Shown here one piece after another: positions 2,518 through 17,366 of a stretch of 32,000 nucleotides of DNA. Where the stretch lies: contig NC_020304.1 of the NCBI RefSeq assembly GCF_000341395.1, positions 300,001 to 332,000 on the forward strand, in the 5' to 3' direction. A model generated the notes under the pieces. It saw nothing but the letters and a program-made list of their open reading frames with translations, had not been told where the DNA came from and did no database searches. The stretch is from Desulfocapsa sulfexigens DSM 10523 (GTDB taxonomy: Bacteria > Desulfobacterota > Desulfobulbia > Desulfobulbales > Desulfocapsaceae). The translations under genes and the position numbers were made by a program. The first letter of the stretch is position 1. Each line of letters starts with the position of its first letter.

Positions 2518-2569
2518 GACTGTGCACTATCAATCTCCACGCTAATTTTTTTATATACGGACAGAAACG

Positions 2570-4078
2570 ATGACATCATCTGACACACACACTCTTCCCC
2601 CTGGAAGACGACCCATTTTCCCAACACTGCTACTCTGCACTCTTTTCCTTTTCATCAGCTTTCCACAGGAAAGCAGTGCTCGCGAAGCCGTAACCATGTT
2701 TCTTGGAGAAGTAAAGGTTCTGGAAATTGATGCGATAGAACGTGTGGCTATAGGAAATCCTGCGGTGGCAAGCAACTCCATTCTCCCTCAGGGCCAGCTG
2801 GTACTCCTTGCTGATTCCGTGGGAGCGACCACCATGCACCTCTGGCTGAAGGATGGTCAGGAAAAAGACTTTGACATCGTGGTCAACGAAAAAAAAGTCT
2901 TTGATGACTACGAGGAACTCGTCTCTCTTCTCAGTACTTTCCAGGGAATCAAGCCCATACGAATCGGCGATCTAACCGTTATCAAGGGAAAGATTCATAA
3001 AAAAGACAAGTCTCAATTCGACCGTATTCTCAAGCGCTATGGTGATGTTCTCGACCTGGTCACCGCCAGAGACATTCAATCAGAAGTTTCCCTGTTACTT
3101 AAAGACATCCCAAACCTGACGGTTCGGGAAATTGGCGGCTACACCGTTCTCTCCGGTGAAATAAGTAAGGAGTTTTCTCCCCTCATTGCCATTATCGAGC
3201 AAAAGTACCAGAACATCATGAATCTGACCAGAGTACATGCCGCTGTAGCAGGGAAAATGATCTACATGAAGGTCAAAATCATGGAACTCAGCAAGAGCGT
3301 TACCCAGAAGCTTGGAATCAACTGGGGAAACCTTATGACCGGGCTCACCGGACCTTCACTTGTTTTTGGAGTGGAGTCATCACGAAACGGCGGAACCCTC
3401 CTCAATGACAATAGTACTTCATCGGTTCTTACCAAGCCTGGCGGCACAGACCTCACAACATCCAGAGGCTACTTTGGTATAGCCACGGGTGTCACCTCTG
3501 TTATCAACCTCTCTCTGCAGAATGGCGACGGTGTTATCCTTGCAGAACCGCAGTTGAGCACCCGATCCGGTGGCAAGGCAACATTTCATGCTGGCGGAGA
3601 ATATCCAATCGCCACAACTTCCAGCATGGGCCAGGTAAACGTCGAATATAAAAAATATGGTATCATGCTGAATATTGAGCCTTTAGTCGACGACCGTGAT
3701 AACATTCTCGCCCATATTGAAACGGAGATCAGCAATATTGACCATGGCCAGAACTTCGGAGACTACGTGGGTATCCTGACCCGTAACACATCAACGGATG
3801 TCAGCCTCAAGGTTGGTGAGACTCTTGTCATGGCGGGACTTGTTCAGAATGTTGCCCATAACGACTTTAATAAAGTGAAATGGCTGGGCGACACCCCCAT
3901 CCTTGGCCCATTGTTTCGTTCCCAGGACTTTCAAAACCAGCTCACAGAACTTGTCATCTTCGTAACACCATATGTTTACGACGCTTCGTCAACAGTAAAC
4001 TCCGGTAAGCTTACCGAGGCGGCACGTATTCAGAAACAGTTTGATGAAATTGTTAAAGGCCATGAACTGGTAGATTAA
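2570..4078 (+). CDS. cpaC: Tad/Flp pilus secretin CpaC/RcpA
   Basis: Signal peptide, then the N-terminal pilus-formation/BON-like region (LGEVKVLEIDAIERVAIGNPAVA). C-terminal secretin core motifs are present: AEPQLSTRSGGKATFHAGGEYPI, YKKYGIMLNIEPLV, GETLVMAGL and LGDTPILGPLFRS. Confidence 0.9.
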   Translation: MTSSDTHTLPPGRRPIFPTLLLCTLFLFISFPQESSAREAVTMFLGEVKVLEIDAIERVAIGNPAVASNSILPQGQLVLLADSVGATTMHLWLKDGQEKDFDIVVNEKKVFDDYEELVSLLSTFQGIKPIRIGDLTVIKGKIHKKDKSQFDRILKRYGDVLDLVTARDIQSEVSLLLKDIPNLTVREIGGYTVLSGEISKEFSPLIAIIEQKYQNIMNLTRVHAAVAGKMIYMKVKIMELSKSVTQKLGINWGNLMTGLTGPSLVFGVESSRNGGTLLNDNSTSSVLTKPGGTDLTTSRGYFGIATGVTSVINLSLQNGDGVILAEPQLSTRSGGKATFHAGGEYPIATTSSMGQVNVEYKKYGIMLNIEPLVDDRDNILAHIETEISNIDHGQNFGDYVGILTRNTSTDVSLKVGETLVMAGLVQNVAHNDFNKVKWLGDTPILGPLFRSQDFQNQLTELVIFVTPYVYDASSTVNSGKLTEAARIQKQFDEIVKGHELVD

Positions 4079-4111
4079 ATCAACTCTTATTGTCAGGAAA
4101 ACTCTGAAAAA

Positions 4112-5836
4112 ATGTTTGACATCATAATTCATGACGACAAGGGCAGCACTCTTGAGACCCTGCAATGCACGAAAGCAGAGTGCGGCATTGGTCGTTCCGG
4201 AAAAAACCTGGTCCAACTCAGTGGCTGGCGAATTGCCGGGATTCACGCCCAACTGATTGAAAGAGAGGATGGAATCTATGTCAGCGACACTTCATCCGGC
4301 ATCGGAACGCGGGTCAACGGAGAAACGATAACGACATTTGGTCCGCTTCTGGCTAAAGACACTATCACCATCGGTACATTCAGGATATCAGTAAGCTCAG
4401 GAAAACGACCCTCAGCACAACAGACCGAGCCACCAGCTAGTGAGCCTGAAACCACAGCAAACGAAATGATGGAGAAACCGGAGAAAGAACCATCCGAACC
4501 GAAAAACTCGCTCCGCAGAACATTTGGGGTTCGACAGGGGGCCGAAGATGGACTGGCTGCACCGGGCAGAGATGACCGTCGTTTTATATGGCACAAACGC
4601 ATCCATGACAAACTCATGAACGCCATGGACCTGCGCCGTACCGATGTGCAGGCCATGAACGATGACGAACTCAGTGAAACCGTCAGGTCGCTGGTGAATG
4701 ACATAATAGGGAAAATGGCCAGGAGCCTGCCTCCCGAAGTTGACCGTGCAAAACTTGCCAAGGAGGTCATCGATGAAGCCATAGGACTCGGGCCTCTCGA
4801 AGATTTCCTCGCCGAAGATTCGATCACCGAAATCATGGTGAACAGTTACGACTCAATCTACTACGAAACCCATGGTAAACTCCACAAATCAAACATAACA
4901 TTCAGCAGTGATAATGCCGTCCTTGCCGTCATTGAACGTATTGTTTCGCCCCTGGGGAGACGAATTGACGAAAGTTCCCCCATGGTCGACGGCAGGCTGA
5001 AGGATGGCTCCAGAATTAATGCCATCATTCCGCCCCTTGCCATAAAAGGTCCCTGCCTTACCATTCGGAAATTTTCCAGAAAAAAACTGAGCATTGATGA
5101 TTTTGTCCAATTTGGATCGATCTCCAACAAAATGGTAGATTTTCTAGAAAAAGCCGTTCACTATCGAAAGAATATTATTATTTCAGGGGGAACCGGCAGT
5201 GGCAAAACCACATTCCTCAATGTTCTCTCAGATTTTATTCCCCACGATGAACGGATTATCACGGTGGAAGATTCTGCAGAGTTAAAGCTTGGTCAACCAC
5301 ATGTGGTATCTCTTGAAGCCAGACCAGCAAATATGGAAGGCAAAGGGGCAATCATCATCCGGGATCTGGTAAAAAACTGTCTCCGCATGCGCCCCGATCG
5401 TATTATTGTCGGGGAATGCCGAGGGGGAGAAACCCTTGATATGCTTCAGGCCATGAATACAGGGCACGACGGCTCCCTGACAACTGTCCACGCCAACTCT
5501 CCGCGGGATCTTGTCTCCCGCCTTGAAGTGATGGTGATGATGGCCGGAATGGACCTTCCTGAAAAAGCTATCCGGGAGCAGATTGCCTCGGCGGTCCATG
5601 TTGTTGTACAGCAGTCACGATTCTCTGATGGAACACGCAAGATCACCCATATTACGGAGATCACCGGTATGGAAACCGGAGTGGTGCAGATGCAGAACAT
5701 TTTCATTTACAAACAAAACGGACTTGATAAGGACGGTAACGTTATAGGAGAATACAAGGCCACTGGACGCGTTCCGGAATTTTACGAGGTATTGCGGCAG
5801 CAGGGCATAACTGTTGACATGAGTATATTCGAGTAA
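4112..5836 (+). CDS. cpaF: CpaF/TadA secretion ATPase with an N-terminal FHA domain
   Basis: aa 1-95 look like FHA (CGIGRSGKNLVQL...IAGIHAQLIEREDGIYVSDTSSGIGTRVNGETI...ITIGTFRI). An acidic, Pro-rich linker follows. The VirB11/CpaF-type core has Walker A GGTGSGKTT, the Asp box ITVEDSAEL, Walker B RPDRIIVGECRG and the His box GHDGSLTTVHANS. Confidence 0.9.
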   Translation: MFDIIIHDDKGSTLETLQCTKAECGIGRSGKNLVQLSGWRIAGIHAQLIEREDGIYVSDTSSGIGTRVNGETITTFGPLLAKDTITIGTFRISVSSGKRPSAQQTEPPASEPETTANEMMEKPEKEPSEPKNSLRRTFGVRQGAEDGLAAPGRDDRRFIWHKRIHDKLMNAMDLRRTDVQAMNDDELSETVRSLVNDIIGKMARSLPPEVDRAKLAKEVIDEAIGLGPLEDFLAEDSITEIMVNSYDSIYYETHGKLHKSNITFSSDNAVLAVIERIVSPLGRRIDESSPMVDGRLKDGSRINAIIPPLAIKGPCLTIRKFSRKKLSIDDFVQFGSISNKMVDFLEKAVHYRKNIIISGGTGSGKTTFLNVLSDFIPHDERIITVEDSAELKLGQPHVVSLEARPANMEGKGAIIIRDLVKNCLRMRPDRIIVGECRGGETLDMLQAMNTGHDGSLTTVHANSPRDLVSRLEVMVMMAGMDLPEKAIREQIASAVHVVVQQSRFSDGTRKITHITEITGMETGVVQMQNIFIYKQNGLDKDGNVIGEYKATGRVPEFYEVLRQQGITVDMSIFE

Positions 5837-5844
5837 ATACGACT

Positions 5845-6696
5845 ATGATTGCAAACATTATCATCGCCTCTCTTGTGGCCGTCTCTACAGGAATTTTTGC
5901 CTGGCTCTTTTTTCTCAAGATGTATGACAAATTGACCTACTACAAGGATACTGTCGAAGAACTAACAACAAACAAATTCTCCGAACTTTTTCTCTTCATC
6001 GATATCTCTAACTATTTTTATTATTACATTGCGGCGCTCCTCATCTTCCCTATTATTGCTGGAAGCCTCTCGGGAGATATTTCACTCGGCATACTCACAT
6101 TTCTCGTCATACTCTTCTCACCTTACCTGATCCTCAAGGAGATGATCAAAAAGCGGTTGAAGAAGTTTGAACAGCAGTTGCCGGATGCCCTTGTCATGGT
6201 TGCCGGATCCATCAGGTCTGGATCCAGCCTACCCATTGCTCTCGATAGCCTTATTAAGGAAAGTTCACCTCCGCTCTCTCAGGAATTCGGTCTCTATGTC
6301 CGTGAACGAAAACTTGGGCTCGACCGTGACAAAGCATTTGACAATCTGGAGCGCAGGGTACCTCTCGAGGATTTATCCCTTTCTCTGTCAGCCATTCGTA
6401 TATCCAGTGAAATTGGTGGAGATCTTGCCGAAACCCTGGAATCTCTTGCTGAAACTCTTCGAAAAAAACTTGTCATGGAAGGGAAAATAGACAGTCTCAC
6501 CTCACAGGGGAAACTGCAGGGAATTGTGATGTCCACCCTCCCTCTTTTTCTCATCGTCGCCCTGATGAAACTGGAACCGGCTGCCATGGGCCAGATGTTC
6601 ACCACCAAAATAGGATGGATGGTTCTGGCGACGATTGTATGCATGCAGGTACTCGGATTTATAGCCATCAGAAAAATCACAGCAATTGACGTGTAA
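5845..6696 (+). CDS. tadB: Tad pilus inner-membrane platform protein TadB (T2SS-F-like)
   Basis: Polytopic membrane protein with a T2SSF-like cytoplasmic segment (QLPDALVMVAGSIRSGSSLPIALDSL...). It lies immediately after cpaF. Confidence 0.85.
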   Translation: MIANIIIASLVAVSTGIFAWLFFLKMYDKLTYYKDTVEELTTNKFSELFLFIDISNYFYYYIAALLIFPIIAGSLSGDISLGILTFLVILFSPYLILKEMIKKRLKKFEQQLPDALVMVAGSIRSGSSLPIALDSLIKESSPPLSQEFGLYVRERKLGLDRDKAFDNLERRVPLEDLSLSLSAIRISSEIGGDLAETLESLAETLRKKLVMEGKIDSLTSQGKLQGIVMSTLPLFLIVALMKLEPAAMGQMFTTKIGWMVLATIVCMQVLGFIAIRKITAIDV

Positions 6697-7580
6697 TGAC
6701 TGAAAATTTATATAACATCATACTGGGCTTGAGCGTGTCGGCATCAATCCTCTTCACCCTTATGGGGGTTCTGCAGCTAAGCAAACTGGTTCCCGAAGAG
6801 GATCGTGAATTTATGGATCCTCTCCCCCCGCTCCTGGATTTCATCTGGCCTCTTGCTCGTATTATTGCCTATTACGGCTGTTCCAGGATTCCATTTTCCT
6901 ACCTCAAAAGTGTCGAAGGACGCCTGAAACGCAATGGACTCGGCCATATGATGATCGCTGAAGAGTTTATTGCTCTTCGCATTATTGCGGCATCTGTGGC
7001 ACTCCTTTCGGGCTACATCCTGATAACACTCCTCGCGGAATGGAATCCTATCCTCTACATTGTTCTTCCCGCACTTGGATTCTTTTATCCGGATATATGG
7101 CTCAGAGACATTCGTAAGAAGCAGGTGGATGCTGTCCTGCGCACCCTGCCTGCCTACCTGGACTTTATCACCATGGCAGTGGAAGCCGGGCTGAATTTCT
7201 CAGGAGCCATCGCCCAGGCCAGAACCAAGGGTCCGGCAGGACCGCTGGTGATAGAATTTGGCATCGTACTCCGCGATATGCGTTCCGGAATCCCGAGGAC
7301 CAGAGCCTTGAAGCGAATGGCCAAACGACTGGACATCCATGAAATAAGCAGTTTTGTAAACGCCGTGGTACAGGCAGAAAAAATGGGATCAAGCATGGCT
7401 GGGGTCCTGCGGATCCAGGCAGAGCAACGCCGCAGTGAACGCTTTCAACGGGCAGAAAAGAAAGCGATGGAAGCACCGGTCAAGCTTATCGGCCCACTGG
7501 TTATTTTTATCTTCCCAACGACCTTTATTGTACTGGCATTTCCCATTGCCATTAAGTTTATTCAGGGAGGCTATTTTTGA
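6696..7580 (+). CDS. tadC: Tad pilus inner-membrane platform protein TadC (T2SS-F-like)
   Basis: The start overlaps the tadB stop (TAATG). T2SSF-like segment: LPAYLDFITMAVEAGLNFSGAI...SSFVNAVVQAEKMGSSMAGVLRIQAEQ. Confidence 0.85.
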   Translation: MTENLYNIILGLSVSASILFTLMGVLQLSKLVPEEDREFMDPLPPLLDFIWPLARIIAYYGCSRIPFSYLKSVEGRLKRNGLGHMMIAEEFIALRIIAASVALLSGYILITLLAEWNPILYIVLPALGFFYPDIWLRDIRKKQVDAVLRTLPAYLDFITMAVEAGLNFSGAIAQARTKGPAGPLVIEFGIVLRDMRSGIPRTRALKRMAKRLDIHEISSFVNAVVQAEKMGSSMAGVLRIQAEQRRSERFQRAEKKAMEAPVKLIGPLVIFIFPTTFIVLAFPIAIKFIQGGYF

Positions 7581-7933
7581 TTACCGGAAAGATCAGCATC
7601 AACTCTTCACCTGAAACATCTCTCTACCATATCAGAAAGACCGAAACATTCTTTGAACGTGGCCGGGGATTGCTGGGATGCACAGGACTTGAAGAAGGAC
7701 ACGGTATGCTCATCAGCCCATGTAACTCCATCCACACCTTTTTCATGAAGTTCCCAATAGATGTTATTTTTTTAAGCAACGACAATCGTATTCTGGCCAT
7801 CCATCTCAATATGAAGCCACAACGTTTTTCACGATCAGCAAACGCCTCATCTGTCCTTGAACTCATGGCTGGTCAAACTGACATATCAGGTCTTCAGACG
7901 GGAGATACCCTCCTCTGGGAGCCACTGCAATGA
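7577..7933 (+). CDS. DUF192 (COG1430) family protein embedded in the tad operon
   Basis: TTG start overlaps the tadC stop (TTTTGA). The motif block RGRGLLGCTGLEEGHGMLISPCNSIHTFFMKFPIDVIFL is characteristic of DUF192. Confidence 0.7.
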   Translation: MITGKISINSSPETSLYHIRKTETFFERGRGLLGCTGLEEGHGMLISPCNSIHTFFMKFPIDVIFLSNDNRILAIHLNMKPQRFSRSANASSVLELMAGQTDISGLQTGDTLLWEPLQ

Positions 7934-8382
7934 TAACACTGAAGAGCATTTCCCGTCTCAGTTTCCTGCTGTTTTTTATCCTTACGAGTTGTGCCACAAA
8001 AGACCTGACCCGTATCCGTGAAGAGGCCTATATGGCCTATGATAATAAGGAATACGACAGCGCCGCAGATAAATTTGAAATCCTGGTAAAAAATGCCCCG
8101 GAAGACGTGGAATTCTGGTTTCGTCTCGGAAATGCCTATGCCAGATCGCAGAATCCGCAACTGGCTATATCTGCCTATCAGAACGCGCTACTGCGCGACC
8201 CCACCCATGTAAAGGCATGGTATAATATGGGATTTGTTCAGACCCAGACGGCACTGAAAACATTCGTCGATATGCAAACCTACACGGACACGGGTAGCCC
8301 CCTCGGAAAACAGGGGAAAAACATGCGGGAAGGCCTGTTTCTCCTACTCGAACATGGCAATGAACCTCCAGAAGACAAATAG
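7930..8382 (+). CDS. TPR-repeat lipoprotein (TadD-like candidate)
   Basis: ATGA overlap with the preceding gene. Signal peptide with lipobox ILTS|C. TPR-like helices follow (AADKFEILVKNAPEDVEFWFRLGNAYARSQNPQLAISAYQNALLRDPTHVKAWYNMG). The operon position is compatible with a TadD-type pilotin. Confidence 0.6.
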   Translation: MITLKSISRLSFLLFFILTSCATKDLTRIREEAYMAYDNKEYDSAADKFEILVKNAPEDVEFWFRLGNAYARSQNPQLAISAYQNALLRDPTHVKAWYNMGFVQTQTALKTFVDMQTYTDTGSPLGKQGKNMREGLFLLLEHGNEPPEDK

Positions 8383-9127
8383 ACACAGGCCCGATTTCAG
8401 TTTTCAGGCAAGACTCCTCTCAAATTCGGGGCAGAGTATGGCCGAATTTCTGATTATCCTGCCCGTCATGCTGCTGCTTATTTTCGGGGCTATCCAATTT
8501 GCCCTTATATACCACGCCAAGATAACTCTCAATTATGCGGCCTTTGAGGCTGTACGTGCTGGAACTCTGGGACAGGGGAAATTCGATGAAGTCAAGGAAG
8601 GATTTGCCAGGGGACTGGCTCCGCTCTACAGCTACTTTGAATCAGACCCGGACCTGAGAAAAAAACGGGATCCCAATGCCACTGCCGGGGATCAGATTGA
8701 AGCCTTCCAGATGGCGCGCGACAAGATTTACAAAGAGTTTGACACCTCAAGCAAACTGATCCGTATTGAACGACTCAATCCCTCTGACACAACATTCCTC
8801 AGTTTTGCCTCCGACGCAACACTGCCCAATGACAATCTCAGATACCGTTCCTCAAAAACGAAGGGGAAGGAACAGGTATCATTACAGGATGCGAACCTCC
8901 TCCATCTCCGTGTGACTTACTGGTACCCACTCTACGTCCCCTTTGTGAATAAATTGATTTTCAACACCTTTATCTGCCACAAAAAGTCCCCCGGTTTTTC
9001 AGGGAAATGGGCTGACGATCCCGTCTGTCTGGACAAAGATCAGGATCCGGTAATCCCCCTGACGGCCACAGCAGTCATGCGGATGCAGACACCACTGCTT
9101 CAGAGCACCGGATATTATCCAAATTAA
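8354..9127 (+). CDS. TadE-like pseudopilin
   Basis: The leader ends ...LLSNSG|QSMAEFLIILPVMLLLIFGAIQFALIYH, matching the TadE/TadF prepilin-like motif G/xxxxEF plus a hydrophobic helix. The 5' end overlaps the TPR gene by 29 nt (alternative ATG at 8360). Confidence 0.7.
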   Translation: MAMNLQKTNRHRPDFSFQARLLSNSGQSMAEFLIILPVMLLLIFGAIQFALIYHAKITLNYAAFEAVRAGTLGQGKFDEVKEGFARGLAPLYSYFESDPDLRKKRDPNATAGDQIEAFQMARDKIYKEFDTSSKLIRIERLNPSDTTFLSFASDATLPNDNLRYRSSKTKGKEQVSLQDANLLHLRVTYWYPLYVPFVNKLIFNTFICHKKSPGFSGKWADDPVCLDKDQDPVIPLTATAVMRMQTPLLQSTGYYPN

Positions 9128-9658: not shown

Positions 9659-11581
9659 CTACCAACCACCTCCGCCACCACCACCTGAGCTGCCACCACC
9701 ACTACTGCCACCGGATGAGGATCCACCACCACTTGCAGTAAGTGAGCCCACCGCCATACTCCATGAGCCACTCGCTCCGCCACCGCCAAAGGCCCCACCA
9801 CCACCGGTAAAACCCGATGTCGACGAACCACTGCCAATTCCCGTTGAACTGAGATGACCTACGCTGCCACCAAACTTTCGAAACCATGAATCAACGTCCA
9901 TCCCCAGGCCAAAGGCGAGGAGATAGGGGAACCAGTCGTCTTTGATCCTGGGATTCTTCTGAGCCAACTCCTGTTTGAAAAAGTTTCTGGCCGCGGCAAA
10001 ATTTCTTCGTAAAACAAGCCCTTCTTTACTTTCCCTGGATTTGGAGAGGTTAATAATATTGTTGCTGAAAGACAATGCCAGGCAGAACAGTCCGAAGAGG
10101 AGCAGACTGGACGCCGGAAAGAATAAGAGCACAGCAAAATCTATCAGAATAAACCAGAGAGAAAAGATTATCGCAGCCAATCGTACCTTCAGCGAGAGAA
10201 CAGAATGACGATAGCTGTAGGCGCAGACACAACCAAAAATCCATGAAAAAAGTAGTCCTGCCATACCTCCAACCTGTAACGGGACAAATTCGGCCTGATG
10301 CAGAAAAGCATTCCCAAGTAAAAGAAAGCAACCAGCGACACCTAACAGCACCGTAGGTATCCAGATCATTCCAAGAACAGAATTCCCTTCATCGACAAGC
10401 TTTTTCATCTGCCTTTGCAGGGGGTCCTGTATTTTAAGCACTGGATCAAATGTCTTTCGTTTTTTGCGATAATATTCACGAATGGTTTTGGTGTCTGTTA
10501 TGTCCGAATTTTCGTCCACAAACAGCCCTTTAACCAGTTTGTATTCATAGCCGGAGAACGACTCCCTGGGTTGCAGGATTTTCAGATACAAAACAGGAGG
10601 AATGCCGGGGATACTAATATTGAAGAAAGGCAGGAGATAGGGTTCCATCCAACTCTCCATTTTCCCCTCCTGTACCATTCTGGAAAGAACCGCTGCCACT
10701 TCCGCAGTAGAGGTTGTTTTATCCCAGGTAGCCCCAACTACCTCCGCCTTATGGACGAAGAGCTCTTTTTCAAGCCACTGCTCATCCACAAGGGATGTTG
10801 ACGGGAGCGGTGCAAAACGATTTAGGGATCTTTCCCATTGAAAAAAACCACGTATCTTTGTTGCAATCCAGGCAACCAAAAAGAGTAACAGCAAGAGACG
10901 GATCCAGGTAGCAGCTGGAGGCGGTGGCAGGGCCGGAGTTGCCTGAGGAAGTGGGGCCTGTTTTGTGTAGGTCATAGGCTTTTTTTCTCCTGAAAAGCTT
11001 AGCTTCTGACGCAGCACAACTCCCTCTCCGGGAGCTATGTTATTACGAACCAGAGAAATCGGTAATTGCTGCCATACAGGGTCAAAGGTCAGTTCCAAAC
11101 GAAAATTCTTAACAATTCCTGACCGATCCGGAAAACAGAAATCATGATCCAGCAGATAGTTGCCCTGTTCTGGAAGCAATAGATGACTCAGACTGTAACG
11201 AAGAATATAGGTGATGGAGGTATTGTTAAAAACAGGATCGGAAGGAAGGCGCGAACGCCAGCGGATTGCCGTCTGCCCGTTATGATCCCAGTGATCTACC
11301 AGTTGGAGGTTACCACGCTGTAACGGGATATTTCGACCATTGGCATCAAGCCTGCTGATCGACTCGAATTTCATCTTCTGACCAGGAAAGACACGAAATA
11401 TCCGTTCGCCACCATTCCAGTCACCCGAGAACACAATAGTTTGCTGCTCTTGAATATGAAGACGTCCATCACCATCCAGGGTTGCCCTGACTTCAATATC
11501 CTGCCAGAAGAGAGAGCGGGCCTCTGCAGCGAAAGGACACAGAAGGACGCAGAAAAGGAGGAAACGAAACACAATTAGCAT
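9659..11581 (-). CDS. DUF2207-family membrane protein with a Gly/Ser-rich C-terminal tail
   Basis: Signal/anchor MLIVFRFLLFCVLLCPFAAEA. The N-terminal exo-domain (LFWQDIEVRATLDGDGRLHIQEQQTIVFSGDWNGGERIF) is typical of DUF2207. Several TM helices follow. The C-terminus ...GGGGAFGGGGASGSW...GGGSSGGGGGGGW is the family-typical poly-Gly tail. Confidence 0.8.
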   Translation of the reverse strand: MLIVFRFLLFCVLLCPFAAEARSLFWQDIEVRATLDGDGRLHIQEQQTIVFSGDWNGGERIFRVFPGQKMKFESISRLDANGRNIPLQRGNLQLVDHWDHNGQTAIRWRSRLPSDPVFNNTSITYILRYSLSHLLLPEQGNYLLDHDFCFPDRSGIVKNFRLELTFDPVWQQLPISLVRNNIAPGEGVVLRQKLSFSGEKKPMTYTKQAPLPQATPALPPPPAATWIRLLLLLFLVAWIATKIRGFFQWERSLNRFAPLPSTSLVDEQWLEKELFVHKAEVVGATWDKTTSTAEVAAVLSRMVQEGKMESWMEPYLLPFFNISIPGIPPVLYLKILQPRESFSGYEYKLVKGLFVDENSDITDTKTIREYYRKKRKTFDPVLKIQDPLQRQMKKLVDEGNSVLGMIWIPTVLLGVAGCFLLLGNAFLHQAEFVPLQVGGMAGLLFSWIFGCVCAYSYRHSVLSLKVRLAAIIFSLWFILIDFAVLLFFPASSLLLFGLFCLALSFSNNIINLSKSRESKEGLVLRRNFAAARNFFKQELAQKNPRIKDDWFPYLLAFGLGMDVDSWFRKFGGSVGHLSSTGIGSGSSTSGFTGGGGAFGGGGASGSWSMAVGSLTASGGGSSSGGSSGGGSSGGGGGGGW

Positions 11582-11673: not shown

Positions 11674-13110
11674 TTACGGAACCTCTCTTACAAGGGATAT
11701 TTTCTCCAACGTTCTCCTGAGCAGAGTAGCCATATCCACACGAATCTCAGCATCCTGTTCCGAGTGTTCGTTTTTTTGCACTATTTCAAAAAAACGATTG
11801 CAGACCTTACGCTCCTCTCTGTTCCAATCGGCACTGTAGCCCACTTTTGCAGGAAGCATAGCATCATCGGAGGACGAGGTTTGGTAATCTCTCCGTCCAT
11901 GAGCCCAGTTTATGATATGGCTGTAGAAGAGAAACTGTCGATCAAGCAGCACAAAAAGAAGCTGGATATTTTTTACCGGCCCAACCGTCAGCTGCTGCGC
12001 ATCAAGACGCATCCCCAGAAGGCGTGTGCCTGACAACAATTCTCGTCCCTTCAGTGCTGTCCCCGCAGCCCCCACAATCCCGCCAATGGTTGAAAAAATC
12101 CCAAAGGAAAGTCCGGCAGCAGCCACATCAATACCGGCACCAACGGCAGCACCACCCAATGCTCCTGCCATGATCAGCTGTGAAGAACTCAACCCAAGAA
12201 ACTCCCAGGTTTTTTCTGCGAACAGATCCTCCTGAAGAATGGAGTGAGGCGGCAGATCAAGGTTGAAGATATTGTGTTTATAAAGATCCCGCATCTGTTG
12301 CTGACACTTCTTCTCCTGCTGGCGAAGGAAATGTTCATACTGTCCGTGGATTTTTTTCTTCAAAGCCCCCTCGTCATCTCCTGGCTGTAACGATATAGAG
12401 CGGTGGTAAGTAAGCCCCTCTTCCACAAGACCAAGCAGCAGCTCCACCACCTGGGTGTTACGCTGCTGCCAGTCATTCTTAAAAGCAATTATCACCTGAT
12501 CAACTATGGGCTGCAGATTCTGATCGATTCCCTTGAGGCTCTCCAGCAGTGCAATACGTTCCTGGTAGGTGGCCCGGCAGGAGTTAAAAAGCCGGATGGA
12601 GTTAAAATGTTTTCTGAATTCCAACTGCCACTTCCCCAGCCATCCCGTCTCTTCAACCTTGCAATTGATAATCGCCATGCGCGGACAGCCGGTGAGACGC
12701 AGAATCTCCATCTCCGCTTTGTCCATATTACGAAGCGGCCTTGAGCCATCGACAACAAAGATAATCCCAGCCCCCCGCAACAGTGGCTGCAGAAGTTCAC
12801 AATCATCCTTAAAATCGGGATCACCAATGTGAGCTGCAATAAAGTCTGCTATCAGGGTATCATCGTTTCCCTGGTATTCCTGCATCCATTGCAGTGTCCT
12901 TCGCGGATTTTGAAAACCCGGGGTATCGGTGAATCTGATTATTTCCCTGCCATCAATAGTGACCGGAAAAATCTGACATTGTCTGGTTTCCCCCGGCATT
13001 GGGCTGATACGTACGGAATCATCTTCAGCAAGGGTAGACAATACCGAGGACTTGCCTTCGTTCGGATGGCCGATCACCGCAAATTCAGGAATTTTCCTCT
13101 CTTCTATCAT
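11674..13110 (-). CDS. Membrane-associated GTPase (MMR_HSR1-like G domain plus DUF3482-like region)
   Basis: G1 is GHPNEGKSS and G3 is DTPG. The G4 position reads INCKVEE, which is non-canonical. A Gly/Ala-zipper hydrophobic hairpin LIMAGALGGAAVGAGIDVAAAGLSFGIFSTIGGIVGAAGTAL lies at nt 12049-12174. The start overlaps the stop of the upstream gene. Confidence 0.8.
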   Translation of the reverse strand: MIEERKIPEFAVIGHPNEGKSSVLSTLAEDDSVRISPMPGETRQCQIFPVTIDGREIIRFTDTPGFQNPRRTLQWMQEYQGNDDTLIADFIAAHIGDPDFKDDCELLQPLLRGAGIIFVVDGSRPLRNMDKAEMEILRLTGCPRMAIINCKVEETGWLGKWQLEFRKHFNSIRLFNSCRATYQERIALLESLKGIDQNLQPIVDQVIIAFKNDWQQRNTQVVELLLGLVEEGLTYHRSISLQPGDDEGALKKKIHGQYEHFLRQQEKKCQQQMRDLYKHNIFNLDLPPHSILQEDLFAEKTWEFLGLSSSQLIMAGALGGAAVGAGIDVAAAGLSFGIFSTIGGIVGAAGTALKGRELLSGTRLLGMRLDAQQLTVGPVKNIQLLFVLLDRQFLFYSHIINWAHGRRDYQTSSSDDAMLPAKVGYSADWNREERKVCNRFFEIVQKNEHSEQDAEIRVDMATLLRRTLEKISLVREVP

Positions 13111-14681
13111 CTCTTCACCAGGGGGCTTACCTGAAGACAGGGGTCCAGCAGTATGGCAGTTTTCTCACGCCAGACCTGAAGGTCCATCTTCGTTACCGGG
13201 GTAAAAATGGTACTCGGATCCGGTTTTCCAATGAGTCCCACAATGATGACCGTTTCTTTGCCACAGTGGAGACGAAGCTCCCGGAGAAAATGCAGCATTT
13301 CCTGAATGGGCGGCTGCCAGGCCTCCTGCAGAATCAGCAGGGGGAAACAACCTCCATCCGATTCAGGTCGCAATTGTGAAAAGATCGGGCTGCTGTCACC
13401 ATATTCATCATCAATCCGCAGCATTCCAGCAACGCCATATCCGAACACCTCCTGGCAGAGCTGTTTCATTCCGGCCGTATCACAGTCATCAAAGAGTTCA
13501 TCCGGGACAAGAGCCAGGAGTTCTCCATTTACAGTCCGGGGTTCTTCCTCCTCTCTCTGCATGGTTTTCGGAAGAGGGTCACTGGAGACACCCTGCACCT
13601 GCGGACGAGTTTCAAGCCGAGGGGAGAGAAGGCGATGGAGGAGCTGATTATGATCCGGTCGCTGTAATGAAACTCTTTTCAGAGCACGCTTACGCCCAAA
13701 GGTACCAAGCATAAAAAGAGCTATCCGGGGCAGTAGGCAGTAACAGCAGATCGCCAGACAGAGAAAGGGCCACCAGGAAACAAGATCAGTGCTTATCAAA
13801 TGATAGAAGCCATCCTTTAACACCATCCTGCTTCCTTCAATCTGGGCAGCACCGGGATAGCTTGCAGACCCCAGCAGCCAGGACCATGGCAGAGCAAGCC
13901 AGTGGACAAGACGTGCCACAAACTGAGACGAAACCTGAATGGTGGACTGCCAGCCAAAGGCCATATCCGAGCTTGCCACCTTGACCAGAAGCACCCCAAG
14001 CACTCCAAAATTAAAGGCAATCCCAAAGAGTTGAAAAAGAAGAAACAGAGGCCAGGAAAACAGCGCTCCGTAGCCCTTGCCACGGGTACGGACGGCAGCA
14101 AGAGCTCCTGCAAATTGAGATCTGCGGTGCCCCGCCATATTCTCAAAGCCGTAACGTCGTATTTTGAAAAGAAAGCTGTTAAGCCCCCTGCTCACCAGGG
14201 AAAGCAATAATGAAGAACGGAGATCAAAGCCGCGTACTCTGCGATAGCCCCACACAAAGAGTAACAGAAGCAGAAAACAGACCTGGAATCCGACAAAGAC
14301 AAGAAAAAAGAGGGACACATTTACCGGTTGCTCCCCGGAATAGCTGAGAAACGACCAGGCAAGCCCGGCACCCGAAGCCAAAGCCAGAAAGGAAAACAGC
14401 GACCAGAACAGACCATACAGCTCATACCACATCCTTCCCGGCAGCAGAGCCTGCCCACCCTGTTCCTGATTTTCCAGACGTCTCCGTTCCTGCAGCCATC
14501 GATAAATCAGCCATTCACGCTCAGGCTCTGCATCCGTCACATCTCCGCCAATTACATTGAGGTAGAGATTCCGATCCCTGTCACGCAGCACAGCTGCGCC
14601 CTCTTCTTCTTCCAGTTGTTTGTCCTGAATGAAAAAATATTCGAGATCCAGAAAATCAGGGATGCGCCACGAAGAATTCAT
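13107..14681 (-). CDS. Polytopic membrane protein, DUF2868-like
   Basis: Acidic soluble N-terminus, at least 4 hydrophobic spans (for example LYGLFWSLFSFLALASGAGLAWSFL and VSLFFLVFVGFQVCFLLLLLFVWGY) and a soluble C-terminal domain. I prefer the ATG at 14681. The track ORF extends to a TTG at 14741, which would overlap the divergent EamA start. The stop overlaps the GTPase ATG (ATGA at 13107-13110). Confidence 0.65.
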   Translation of the reverse strand: MNSSWRIPDFLDLEYFFIQDKQLEEEEGAAVLRDRDRNLYLNVIGGDVTDAEPEREWLIYRWLQERRRLENQEQGGQALLPGRMWYELYGLFWSLFSFLALASGAGLAWSFLSYSGEQPVNVSLFFLVFVGFQVCFLLLLLFVWGYRRVRGFDLRSSLLLSLVSRGLNSFLFKIRRYGFENMAGHRRSQFAGALAAVRTRGKGYGALFSWPLFLLFQLFGIAFNFGVLGVLLVKVASSDMAFGWQSTIQVSSQFVARLVHWLALPWSWLLGSASYPGAAQIEGSRMVLKDGFYHLISTDLVSWWPFLCLAICCYCLLPRIALFMLGTFGRKRALKRVSLQRPDHNQLLHRLLSPRLETRPQVQGVSSDPLPKTMQREEEEPRTVNGELLALVPDELFDDCDTAGMKQLCQEVFGYGVAGMLRIDDEYGDSSPIFSQLRPESDGGCFPLLILQEAWQPPIQEMLHFLRELRLHCGKETVIIVGLIGKPDPSTIFTPVTKMDLQVWREKTAILLDPCLQVSPLVKR

Positions 14682-14733
14682 AACATCAGTTAATAGTTGC
14701 AGGTAAAAAAGAGTTTCTTTCTTTCTGTAAAAG

Positions 14734-15729
14734 ATGCACAATACCAGTTTTCAAGTTTTTTTTACAGAAAGTTTACCATGGATTTTTATTGTGCAGACAA
14801 CAAGCAACTGGCGGGCCAACTTCCTCCTCCTCCTTACCGCAATGATATGGGGTTCTTCCTTCGTTGCCCAGCGTCAGGGAATGGAGCATGTCTCACCCTT
14901 TACCTTTAACGGGCTACGCTTTCTCGTTGGCGCTGTATCTCTTCTCCCCATCCTGTTCCATAGCAGGTCTAAAGAGTACAACAGCACAGGGACAATGCCA
15001 CTACTGTCATGGCCGATCATCGCAGGAGGCTTCTCCCTCGGTCTGGTTCTTTTTGCCGGTGCATCACTGCAACAGATAGGAATAGTCGAAACAACTGCAG
15101 GTAAAGCAGGGTTTATCACCGGACTTTATGTCATTATTGTTCCTCTGCTGGGACTCTTCGGAAAACAGAACACAAGATTCGGCACCTGGCTTGGTGCGTT
15201 GCTCGCTGTCATCGGGATGTATTTTTTAAGTGTCACCGATGATCTCAGCCTTTCGAGAGGTGACCTGCTGGTTCTTTGCAGCGCACTGTTCTGGGCAATG
15301 CACGTGCAATTAATTTCCAGACTGTGCCAGAAGCACGATGCCCTGCAGCTCTCCTTTTATCAATTTCTCTTCTGTGCCCTTTTCAGCCTGCTGACAGCCC
15401 TTCAATGGGAGACAATATCCCTGGCTGGAATTCGGGGTGCACTGTTTCCCATCTTCTACACCGGAATTTTCTCAGTGGGAATTGCCTACACGCTGCAGGT
15501 TGTTGCCCAGAAAAAGGCGCACCCCGCTCACGCTGCCATCATCCTCAGCCTTGAATCTGTTTTTGCGGTCCTGGCCGGCTACTTTATTCTGGGAGAAATA
15601 CTTACCCCCCGAGGACTCTTTGGCTGTAGCCTGATGCTTGCAGGAATGCTCCTGTCACAACTGCTCACCAGCAGAAATAGTGATCAAATACTAAGAGGTT
15701 CACGGTGGTACAGAAAAATATTGAACTGA
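14734..15729 (+). CDS. EamA/DMT-superfamily transporter
   Basis: About 10 predicted TM helices in two EamA-like halves. The N-terminal motif LLLLLTAMIWGSSFVAQRQGME is typical of the family. Confidence 0.85.
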   Translation: MHNTSFQVFFTESLPWIFIVQTTSNWRANFLLLLTAMIWGSSFVAQRQGMEHVSPFTFNGLRFLVGAVSLLPILFHSRSKEYNSTGTMPLLSWPIIAGGFSLGLVLFAGASLQQIGIVETTAGKAGFITGLYVIIVPLLGLFGKQNTRFGTWLGALLAVIGMYFLSVTDDLSLSRGDLLVLCSALFWAMHVQLISRLCQKHDALQLSFYQFLFCALFSLLTALQWETISLAGIRGALFPIFYTGIFSVGIAYTLQVVAQKKAHPAHAAIILSLESVFAVLAGYFILGEILTPRGLFGCSLMLAGMLLSQLLTSRNSDQILRGSRWYRKILN

Positions 15730-16550
15730 CGGTTCTCTGTGAAAACAGTGTAGCGGGCCCCTTCGGCCTTACCGGGGAGCATGGCTGGGCAGTTGGAGTG
15801 ACCACCTCAGCCACCCGTATGCTTTTTGATACAGGACAAGGATTGGGGATACTCCGCAACAGTGAAATCCTTGAGTTTGATCTCAGCAGGGTTGAAACCA
15901 TTGTCCTCAGCCACGGCCATTATGACCACTGTTCCGGATTAGCTCTGGTATTGCCACTCACCGGAAAAACAGATGTTCATATTCACCAACAGGGCTTTGG
16001 CAGACGTTGCCACAGATACAAAGGCACGATCAGAGATATAGGAATCATGGAAAAGCAGAGTAGCCTTGAATCCCTTGGCGCGCACTTCATATTCAACAAA
16101 GATTTCACGAAAATAGAAGACGGGATATATCTCAGTGGAGAAATCCCCCGCCTCACCACATTTGAAGAGCCGGACCCAAGACTTGTACGGGCAGATACAA
16201 CGGAGGAACTCTTTCCCGATCCACTCCTTGATGACCAGACCCTGATTCTCGACAGCAGGGAGGGATTAATACTTATCCTTGGCTGTGCCCATGCAGGATT
16301 AATCAATATCCTCCATCATGTTCAGCAACAGCTGCCAGGCAGACCGATCCACACAATTATTGGCGGAACCCACCTTGGTTTTGCCTCTGATGAACAGTTT
16401 AATGCCACGGTGAAGGCCCTGAGCAATTTTAACATCAAATGTCTTGCTGCAAGTCACTGCACCGGTCTGGAACGTGGAGCAGACCTGGCACAGGCATTTG
16501 GCAGCATATTTCGCTTTGCACCCGTGGGCACGAGACTACAGTTCGCCTGA
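15705..16550 (+). CDS. MBL-fold metallo-hydrolase (COG1237-like)
   Basis: HxHxDH motif (LSHGHYDHCSG) and later His/Asp ligand positions (GCAHAG, GGTHLG). GTG start, overlapping the EamA 3' end by 25 nt. Confidence 0.8.
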   Translation: MVQKNIELTVLCENSVAGPFGLTGEHGWAVGVTTSATRMLFDTGQGLGILRNSEILEFDLSRVETIVLSHGHYDHCSGLALVLPLTGKTDVHIHQQGFGRRCHRYKGTIRDIGIMEKQSSLESLGAHFIFNKDFTKIEDGIYLSGEIPRLTTFEEPDPRLVRADTTEELFPDPLLDDQTLILDSREGLILILGCAHAGLINILHHVQQQLPGRPIHTIIGGTHLGFASDEQFNATVKALSNFNIKCLAASHCTGLERGADLAQAFGSIFRFAPVGTRLQFA

Positions 16551-16552
16551 TT

Positions 16553-17245
16553 ATGCTTCAGCACCATTCCACAGCACAGGAAGCATACTGCACACACTGC
16601 GGCAGTGCTCACACACTCCCCCGTGAACCGGCTATAGCAGCGGCAAAAGACCTGATGGCACGCATGGATCTGGAGCTTGCCACGGATACCCTCTATGGGG
16701 ATGCACGGGGCAAAATGTTCGGGGTACTTGTCTGCCGCACTCCCCACGGCAAGCTCACTACCTTAAAAGCCTTTTCGGGACAGTTTAATGGGCAATGGGA
16801 GCTTCAGGGCTGGGTCCCTCCCCTCTTTAACGTGAAGGACTTTCACGCCCTCAACGACCCGGTGGAAAAGCAGATCAAAGCCCTTGGCAGAGAAGCTGAA
16901 TCCAGCAGTGATCCAAGCATTCTTGAGAAACGCAGACAGCTCTCCAGGAAACTGATGAAGGATATTCACGCACTCTACAGGCTTCACAATTTCAGGGGCC
17001 AACAGTCTTCCCTTGCCGAGCTGTTGCAGGGCCGGGGAATTGCAACGGGAACAGGAGACTGTTGCGCTCCCAAACTGCTCAATTTTGCCGCTCAAAATAA
17101 TCTCCATCCCCTGGCAATCGCTGAATTCTACTGGGGGAAAACGAATAGATCTGCAACCAGACATGAAGGAAATTTCTATCTGGCCTGCACGGACAAATGC
17201 GGCCCCATTCTTGGATTTCTCCTCTGCGGCCTGGAAAAATCGTGA
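16553..17245 (+). CDS. Cys-rich hypothetical protein (resembles the N-terminal module of long RluA-family proteins)
   Basis: ATG at 16553, 2 nt after the MBL stop. The track ORF start at 16439 lies inside the MBL gene. Cys motifs: CTHCGSAH, GDCCAPKLL and ACTDKCGPILGFLLCG. The family link is from my recollection only. Confidence 0.5.
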   Translation: MLQHHSTAQEAYCTHCGSAHTLPREPAIAAAKDLMARMDLELATDTLYGDARGKMFGVLVCRTPHGKLTTLKAFSGQFNGQWELQGWVPPLFNVKDFHALNDPVEKQIKALGREAESSSDPSILEKRRQLSRKLMKDIHALYRLHNFRGQQSSLAELLQGRGIATGTGDCCAPKLLNFAAQNNLHPLAIAEFYWGKTNRSATRHEGNFYLACTDKCGPILGFLLCGLEKS

Positions 17246-17249
17246 GAAT

Positions 17250-17366
17250 ATGGGAGAAATCACCATTCTCCACGCCTATCCTGAGTTTCTGGTCATAAAC
17301 AAACCGTGGGGCCTCCTTTCGGTACCTGAAATCGATCCGGAGGAGAAGGTAAAAAAACTTATTTGA
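17250..17366 (+). pseudogene. 5' stump of an RluA-type pseudouridine synthase (catalytic core missing)
   Basis: The 38 codons MGEITILHAYPEFLVINKPWGLLSVPEIDPEEKVKKLI* match the RluA N-terminal strand (E. coli RluA: ILYQDDHIMVVNKPSGLLSVPG). The ORF stops before the catalytic HRLD motif. It is in a different frame from 16553-17245. Confidence 0.55.

Follow-up and report, generated by a model that had tools for sequence, protein, structure and literature searches.

FeoB is a single polypeptide in which a K+-activated G domain, carrying a canonical NKxD motif, lies at the membrane beside a helical domain and controls a large polytopic permease domain. Bacterial dynamin-like proteins (BDLP, DynA, LeoABC, IniA) join a nucleotide-hydrolysing domain to a helical bundle and a membrane-dipping hydrophobic element; such systems are usually paralogous GTPase pairs, and they are not known to have a polytopic partner whose most conserved residues face the periplasm. 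YcjX/YcjF is a two-gene arrangement that includes a membrane protein. Here we compare with these systems a pair of minus-strand genes found in a stretch of 32,000 nucleotides (nt) of Desulfocapsa sulfexigens DSM 10523 (NC_020304.1, positions 300,001 to 332,000; the whole stretch is called the window, and all window coordinates count from its first letter). The upstream gene encodes a membrane protein of the DUF2868 family and the downstream gene a GTPase with a DUF3482 region, whose G domain has its best sequence and structure matches in Era, Der (EngA) and EngB (YihA). We propose, with a probability of roughly 0.55, that the two genes form a self-contained operon and that their products make up one obligate NTPase/partner complex of the inner membrane, a switch that is driven by nucleotide and works across the membrane.

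The upstream gene ends ...ctg gtg aag aga TGA and the downstream one begins ATG ata gaa, the letters ATGA being common to both. For the DUF2868 gene, the open reading frame (ORF) finder had chosen a TTG at 14741 (ORF 13107-14741, 544 amino acids (aa)), a form that would run into the divergent EamA gene starting at 14734. Since the N-termini of homologues begin at the ATG at 14681 (MNSSWRIPDF...), and since the gene call in L172, a locus of a 97%-identical relative, is likewise of 524 aa, this ATG is most likely the true start. Both proteins are full-length members of their Pfam families, far over threshold. DUF2868 (PF11067) is matched at 1.2e-59 (202.8 bits against a gathering cutoff of 26.8) by residues 212-530 of the 544-aa ORF, and DUF3482 (PF11981) at 1.4e-78 (264.7 bits against 29.2) by residues 167-455 of the GTPase, where it is preceded by MMR_HSR1 (3.9e-13, 49.9 bits against 21.9). 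These families have long been in Pfam, and the window genes are plain orthologues and no discovery in themselves. The members annotated from Thiodictyon, Haloferula and Desulfobulbaceae, whose GTPase NCBI names "GTPase/DUF3482 domain-containing protein", agree with the window pair in length, motifs and gene order, and only lineage-specific sequence sets it apart from them. The original prediction, which was made from the letters alone, had assigned the two families and the ATGA overlap correctly. It had also described a polytopic protein of about 525 aa with an acidic N-terminus, at least four spans and a soluble C-terminal domain, a description that now narrows to 524 aa and four predicted transmembrane (TM) helices.

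For the survey of gene order, two genes were counted as a pair where a DUF2868 gene lies directly upstream of the GTPase gene on the same strand, with the stop and start overlapping or abutting. Three sets of loci were used: 80 GTDB genome loci from Desulfobulbales and Desulfuromonadales, a set obtained by a metagenome scan seeded with the Thiodictyon protein and by look-ups of distant relatives, and three more loci from the Verrucomicrobiota clade. Every one of the 80 genome loci has a DUF2868 ORF immediately upstream on the same strand. The second set holds 62 DUF3482 loci, 53 of them with DUF2868 upstream and two more with a C-terminal fragment of it at the contig edge; six carry no more than 103 nt of upstream sequence and are therefore untestable, which leaves 55 of 56 paired. 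The three loci of the Verrucomicrobiota clade were all paired, so that the two genes adjoin in 138 of the 139 loci that could be tested. Those with a taxon label come from Thermodesulfobacteriota, Gammaproteobacteria (Thiodictyon, a purple sulfur bacterium of the Chromatiaceae) and Verrucomicrobiota (Haloferula), the metagenome contigs being unlabelled, so that the pair is known in bacteria of at least three phyla, cable bacteria among the Thermodesulfobacteriota included. RefSeq annotation likewise places the two Thiodictyon genes side by side, and in Pseudomonas aeruginosa they carry consecutive IMG gene ids (PMC12864544).

The spacing of the two genes points the same way. Among 118 pairs, 72 have a stop-to-start distance of -4 nt and 19 one of -1 nt (91/118 together), and in 109 the distance falls between -20 and +10 nt. 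Over 101 loci, the pairwise identities of the two proteins correlate with r = 0.90, the DUF2868 protein diverging about 1.3 times faster, and an exhaustive search of representatives returned 344 clusters (50% identity) at E < 1e-30. Pairing in 138 of 139 loci excludes a coincidental neighbourhood, and the dedicated GTPase and polytopic partner of the original prediction are thereby strongly supported. Because the genes stand side by side in at least three phyla, the pair almost certainly works as one machine.

Two proteins from the search of representatives, in which the halves appear joined to each other, as in a Rosetta-stone fusion, or to something else, were set aside and are not used as evidence. 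P0371 (984 aa) contains DUF2868, MMR_HSR1 and DUF3482 in one chain, but its Arg-rich linker of 80 aa, at about 400-480, looks out of frame, and it is therefore most likely a frameshift artefact, a read-through of the overlapping genes. P0348 (655 aa), which attaches a C-terminal piece of 190 aa from a DUF3482 protein to CHASE4-HAMP-HisKA, is probably a chimeric assembly.

Conservation of the G motifs was counted over 133 diverse representatives of the GTPase family. In the P-loop, G14, N17, G19 and K20 are each kept in at least 129 of them (N17 in 129), the family consensus for G1 being Gx[PV]NxGK[ST][ST]; T42 is invariant; and in G3, D62, P64, G65 and F66 are found in 131-132 (F66 in 131). 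The G4 motif is another matter. The canonical guanine-specificity motif [NT]KxD is replaced in the window GTPase by NCKVEE, and across the family N149 alone is conserved (132/133), with R, P, S or C at position 150 and K, I or T at 151. Since the Lys and Asp of the canonical motif vary among the representatives, the odd G4 is a trait of the DUF3482 family. The GHPNEGKSS, DTPG and INCKVEE segments are thus all where they had been read at the outset, the last as a family-wide feature. The window protein also has both the Asn of the P-loop pattern GxxNxGK[ST] and, following DxxG, a hydrophobic residue. Such an Asn is the mark of cation (K+)-dependent GTPases, and a hydrophobic side chain where the catalytic Gln would stand is that of the hydrophobic-substituted (HAS) GTPases, the class of MnmE, FeoB, Era, Der and EngB.

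Likeness to Era, Der and EngB ends with the G domain. PDB sequence matches are to Der and Era over about the first 70 residues, and the best Foldseek structure matches, Era (1.5e-5) and EngB (1.3e-4), are likewise confined to the G domain; the matching segments are the P-loop, switch I (PGxT), DTPGF and the FVVDG strand. The NCBIfam models for Der, EngB and Era reach 42.1, 38 and 37.7 bits against curated cutoffs of 306.7, 124.45 and 116.25, each over residues ~3-76 only. These scores lie so far under the cutoffs that the window GTPase is not an equivalog of any of the three, although some homologues are named "GTPase Era" or "EngB" by their sources. Neither a KH domain nor a second G domain is present in it. 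In contrast to Era, Der and EngB, it has a 300-aa helical and hairpin extension, DUF3482, and an obligatory membrane partner.

FeoB is closer in its logic. The window GTPase shares with the Era/MnmE/FeoB-like class the GxxNxGK[ST] Asn and the hydrophobic residue after DxxG, and like FeoB it would place a G domain at the membrane beside a helical domain. FeoB_N is also matched below threshold, at 0.0027 (17.7 bits against 27), a match that is precomputed for many homologues as well. On the other hand, the membrane part of the window system is a separate protein of four predicted TM helices, unrelated to the large permease domain of FeoB, and the GTPase has a hairpin of its own and a degenerate G4 where FeoB has NKxD. 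Pfam finds no FeoB_C or Gate domain in either window protein, and the pair does not belong to the FeoB family.

Downstream of the G domain, the AlphaFold2 (AF2) model of the GTPase (mean predicted local distance difference test score (pLDDT) 72.8) shows long helices at 197-233 and 247-277, the hairpin region, and helices at 383-403 and 431-473. An alignment across phyla reveals invariant or near-invariant residues throughout this part: W214, R217, E266, H279, DLF295-297, W302, GP377-378, LLDR388-391 and H404. The glycine/alanine-zipper hairpin, which the original prediction had placed after a helical region, indeed lies there; its conserved residues are G306, G320, G324, D328 at the turn, G333, G343 and G347. 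The model has low confidence at 308-370, which contains the hairpin, and the pLDDT falls below 40 at the hairpin itself; we read this as what would be typical of a membrane segment modelled apart from its partner and from lipid. A cross-phylum profile of the DUF3482 region found no relative in the PDB (best E = 0.26), and its matches to the glycine-zipper proteins SlyB and complex I NUJM were at chance level.

The DUF2868 protein begins with an acidic domain (18 D/E against 11 K/R) in which D12, D36-R37, W62 and R66 are conserved; this domain is outside the Pfam model, which starts at about residue 192. Hydropathy defines four hydrophobic helices. The segments 146-207 and 327-386 hold 13 and 12 K/R, respectively, whereas the loops predicted to be periplasmic, the segment 235-302 among them, hold 0 and 3. 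By the positive-inside rule, 146-207 and 327-386 would therefore be cytoplasmic, and the protein is predicted to cross the membrane with four TM helices, its N- and C-terminus both being cytoplasmic. With this topology, the positions at which at least 90% of 78 sequences, drawn from several phyla, agree gather on the face predicted to be periplasmic, in the motifs Y114-x-G-xx-P-x-N121, D239-x-AFGWQ245, P265-W-x-W268 and W303-WPFL307. The AF2 model (pLDDT 77.4) has the N-terminal three-helix region, the long hydrophobic helices and a C-terminal domain modelled at pLDDT 83-91. A DUF2868 protein has been detected by proteomics in Thiodictyon, at higher abundance in the dark (PMC6413534).

Two identities were considered for the C-terminal domain of the window DUF2868 protein and set aside. 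That it might be a degenerate G domain and a pairing partner of the GTPase is not supported: hhalign against the GTPase G domain gave a probability below 1%, and the Foldseek matches to the EF-Tu G domain stand at E ~0.2. A receiver-like pseudo-domain is hinted at weakly by Foldseek (receiver domains, E = 0.12) and by a profile search against PDB (receiver domain 2j48, E = 0.063), but Pfam gives no Response_reg match up to an E value of 10, and the label "flavodoxin-like" is used here as a description only.

Table 1. Features of the DUF2868-GTPase/DUF3482 gene pair and of the gene that follows it, in window coordinates.
Feature	Position	Strand	Basis or remark
DUF2868 gene	13107..14681	(-)	524 aa, proposed inner-membrane partner protein; ORF and Pfam
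DUF2868 residues 1-85, acidic helical N-terminal domain, predicted cytoplasmic	14427..14681	(-)	AF2 helices 7-27, 29-47, 55-73
DUF2868 residues 86-326, predicted membrane core	13704..14426	(-)	TM1 ~88-112, TM2 ~122-144, TM3 ~208-234, TM4 ~303-326
DUF2868 motif D239-x-AFGWQ245	13947..13967	(-)	directly after TM3, predicted periplasmic side; most conserved motif of the protein
DUF2868 motif W303-WPFL307	13761..13775	(-)	predicted periplasmic end of TM4; at least 90% conserved
DUF2868 residues 387-524, C-terminal alpha/beta domain, predicted cytoplasmic	13110..13523	(-)	five beta-alpha units, flavodoxin/receiver-like; QEAWQPP motif conserved
ATGA stop/start overlap	13107..13110	(-)	translational coupling; read from the sequence
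GTPase/DUF3482 gene	11674..13110	(-)	478 aa; ORF, Pfam MMR_HSR1 and DUF3482
GTPase residues 1-180, G domain	12571..13110	(-)	Era/Der/EngB-like; helical insertion 69-111 after G3 (AF2)
G1 P-loop G14-HPNEGKSS-22, including N17	13045..13071	(-)	sequence and family conservation
G3 D62-TPGF-66	12913..12927	(-)	F66 at the position of the Ras catalytic Gln
Degenerate G4 N149-CKVEE-154	12649..12666	(-)	replaces NKxD; read as INCKVEE
GTPase residues 167-455, DUF3482 region	11746..12612	(-)	Pfam, AF2, cross-phylum alignment
GTPase residues ~305-352, Gly/Ala-zipper hydrophobic hairpin	12055..12198	(-)	hydropathy windows 305-323 and 329-347
640-aa membrane protein gene	9659-11581	(-)	begins 92 nt past the GTPase stop

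How might such a pair work? Translational coupling would ensure that both proteins are made in a fixed proportion. The GTPase would be a cytoplasmic P-loop NTPase of the Era/EngB type, held at the membrane by a helical stalk that ends in the glycine-zipper hairpin. Binding and hydrolysis of nucleotide on the G domain would change the conformation of the stalk and hairpin; the hairpin and the cytoplasmic domains of DUF2868 would relay this change, and the TM core of DUF2868 would switch. In this manner, the nucleotide state of the cytoplasm would be linked to an event on the periplasmic face or leaflet. That event may be the passage of a small ligand or lipid, by gating or transport, or, if the coupling runs in the reverse direction, the sensing of an envelope cue. 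The logic would be closest to that of FeoB, with the K+-activated G domain and the membrane domain that it controls split over two polypeptides. It is tempting to go further and to see in the pair a class of nucleotide-driven machines of the inner membrane that has so far gone unrecognised, in which a Gln-less NTPase of the K+ type inserts its hairpin into a dedicated 4-TM partner and couples hydrolysis to a periplasmic Trp-rich site. Given the loss of the guanine-specificity motif, such an NTPase might use ATP besides GTP. This stronger form of the proposal is a tentative one, and we think it rather unlikely to hold in full.

Several observations weigh against the switch complex. The physical association of the DUF2868 protein with the GTPase is one that we infer, and K+ dependence and membership of the HAS class are ascribed to N17 and F66 by motif rules that we presume to apply. 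The hydrophobicity of the hairpin is moderate (Kyte-Doolittle values of 1.3-1.7), and for the P. aeruginosa orthologue both DeepTMHMM and CCTOP predict no TM segment (PMC12864544); the hairpin may be a monotopic or partner-buried element. As for the partner, Foldseek returned no significant PDB fold match (best E = 0.06), the profile search against PDB gave E = 0.063, and no similarity to any transporter or channel was detected in a protein that has just four predicted TM helices. One testable locus, L082 (4744-7422), on a 5-Mb contig, has a GTPase/DUF3482 gene with no DUF2868 gene upstream; in its place are a gene for an unrelated 385-aa signal-anchored protein that has no Pfam match and then a BrnT toxin gene. 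Finally, the literature that was searched contains no functional study of DUF2868 or DUF3482 and no phenotype, the Thiodictyon proteomics being the single biological datum, in agreement with the absence of an assigned function noted in the original prediction, and PDB searches found no solved structure that assigns a function to the pair.

The setting of the pair bears on what else it might be. It is essentially chromosomal and non-mobile, is taken here to be vertically inherited, and stands in unrelated housekeeping contexts. Identity follows taxonomy, from 70-80% within Desulfocapsa, through ~60% to other Desulfobulbales and Desulfuromonadales, to 30-40% to gammaproteobacterial and verrucomicrobial copies, and synteny with the EamA gene is conserved inside Desulfocapsa. 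A search of 72,556 plasmids found one copy, and phage records yielded no full-length copy of the pair. The plasmid copy (L088:1694-7428) lies on pTs485 of Thiodictyon syntrophicum, a non-mobilizable replicon of 485 kb, directly downstream of the light-harvesting genes pufB/pufA, and its DUF2868 protein is unusually long (~700 aa). Around the pair, the window contains a Tad pilus operon and genes for PilZ, EamA, a metallo-beta-lactamase (MBL) hydrolase, a methyl-accepting chemotaxis protein (MCP), histidine kinases, a Na/Ca exchanger and penicillin-binding protein 1 (PBP1), with no mobile elements. The 108 nearest neighbours from 37 diverse loci represent 172 Pfam families, none of which occurs in more than four proteins.

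No third partner accompanies the two genes. After the pair itself, the most frequent neighbour cluster is present in 25 of 135 loci, at variable positions and on both strands. Where there is room downstream (106 loci), an opposite-strand gene comes next in 48. A same-strand gene follows closely in 38, and these genes belong to many clusters that have nothing in common (RecQ, histidine kinases, radical SAM, transketolase, acyltransferase, oxidoreductase). In the window, the gene that follows encodes a 640-aa protein with a signal-like N-terminus, several TM segments and a long Gly/Ser-rich C-terminal tail (…GGGGASGSW…GGGGGGGW). DUF2207 and DUF2207_C are matched in the right order, both below threshold (one half at 24.3 bits against 33, the other at 18.6 against 24.4), and the counterpart in L172 has no precomputed Pfam match. 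The 92-nt gap contains no site resembling a terminator, and its RNA is no more stably folded than shuffled controls (z = 0.26). Since L172 keeps the window gene order, this gene included, and no terminator-like site is seen, co-transcription with the pair is a local possibility; it is not a conserved feature. Thus, the gap and the missing terminator of the original prediction stand, while its DUF2207 assignment stays sub-threshold on both halves. The three-gene unit that it suggested does not survive the survey: a homologue of the 640-aa protein is found in one of 80 related loci, 3 kb away behind a RecQ gene, and the genes downstream of the pair are heterogeneous.

Among other explanations, the architecture of the GTPase brings to mind a pair that remodels or repairs membranes along the lines of atlastin, GIMAP, YcjX/YcjF or the dynamin-like proteins of bacteria. 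In that case, the GTPase would oligomerise on the inner membrane through its hairpin "paddle" and deform, tether or repair the membrane under stress, with DUF2868 as its receptor. The modelled order of G domain, helical bundle and hydrophobic hairpin would suit such a role; Foldseek lists EHD2, IniA, GIMAP7, Irga6 and Mfn1 at E ~1e-3 to 1e-4, and faint matches at the P-loop are seen to Dynamin_N (in some homologues) and LeoA. However, these structural matches are no better than those of the Era and EngB G domains, with TM-scores of 0.21-0.29 (0.21-0.25 for EHD2, IniA and Mfn1), and the G domain, at ~180 aa, is Era-like and half the size of that of dynamin. Pfam gives the window GTPase no Dynamin_N match over threshold, no family-level sequence match to the dynamin-like or YcjX families was found in Pfam or NCBIfam, and the most conserved residues of the partner lie on the predicted periplasmic face, which is not known of dynamin-like systems. 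The likeness to dynamin and YcjX/YcjF drawn in the original prediction is still an analogy, and we consider remodelling unlikely. An assembly or biogenesis factor, which would hydrolyse nucleotide to insert or mature another membrane complex such as a respiratory or photosynthetic one, much as other Era-like GTPases serve as checkpoints of assembly, is less probable again. The nearest relatives of the G domain, Era, Der, EngB, HydF and MnmE, are all assembly or maturation GTPases, and the Thiodictyon pair adjoins pufBA, but that neighbourhood is one case, and no client gene is conserved near the pair in 135 loci.

Defence neighbours occur at isolated loci and raise the thought of an anti-phage or conflict module, in which DUF2868 would be a membrane-acting abortive-infection effector under an NTPase sensor. 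In L081:1-13440 (Haloferula sp., GCA_039982995.1), brxC and pglX of a BREX locus lie on either side of the pair; in L171:2220-15075 a Peptidase_M78 gene adjoins it, and McrB/McrC follow 5 kb further downstream; and in L086:87-4598 it abuts a RES-Xre toxin-antitoxin pair. The GTPase also matches LeoA in PADLOC-DB v2 at 1.4e-5, over the N-terminal ~70 residues only (P-loop to G3), and DUF3482 has been listed among accessory Pfam markers in Salmonella (PMC12440251). Against this, the DUF2868 protein matches no PADLOC-DB v2 model, defence genes are not enriched among the 108 neighbours of the 37 loci, similarity tracks taxonomy, EamA synteny is kept in Desulfocapsa, there is one copy in 72,556 plasmids and no full-length one in phages, and the window is free of mobile elements. 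A defence role is accordingly very improbable. As to an ordinary ribosome-associated GTPase of the Era/Der/EngB type that stands beside a membrane gene by chance, or a three-gene operon with the DUF2207-like gene, the names carried by some homologues speak for the former, and the lack of a terminator together with the order kept in the 97%-identical relative for the latter. Synteny already contradicts both, pairing being found at 138 of 139 loci and the DUF2207-like homologue at one of 80, non-adjacent; with the NCBIfam scores far under the equivalog cutoffs and no KH or second G domain, we find this explanation scarcely credible.

Other genes of the window, and of one related locus, deserve brief mention. 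The Tad/Flp pilus operon is complete (592-9127, plus strand), encoding RcpC, a secretin, TadA, TadB, TadC, a TPR protein and TadE. Its TadA ATPase (4112-5836) has an N-terminal FHA domain, and its RcpC (641 aa, 592-2517) contains an extra stretch that matches the D1 domain of flagellar hook FlgE/F/G and DUF3659. Between the genes for the MBL hydrolase and the MCP, in the region 16439-17366 on the plus strand, lies a 268-aa ORF with no Pfam match; its counterpart in L172 is a 230-aa gene call, likewise matchless, and a 117-aa ORF overlaps it in another frame at 17013-17366. In the Haloferula locus, the pair is followed by several small uncharacterised ORFs and by a gene for a 974-aa protein.

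Irrespective of the event that it may drive, the pair, in which an NTPase gene and a membrane-protein gene are strictly coupled, is a comparatively clean example of a "conserved hypothetical" module, and it is a good, tractable target for the discovery of function rather than a surprise. Because it is autonomous and small and has an orthologue in a genetically tractable pathogen, P. aeruginosa, its function is directly testable. The degenerate G4 beside intact catalytic motifs makes it a useful case for the study of nucleotide specificity in Era-like GTPases. If the pair does prove to be a new class of nucleotide-driven machine, it would represent a novel type of transporter, of flippase for lipids or glycans, or of signal transducer acting across the envelope, present from Pseudomonadota to Verrucomicrobiota.

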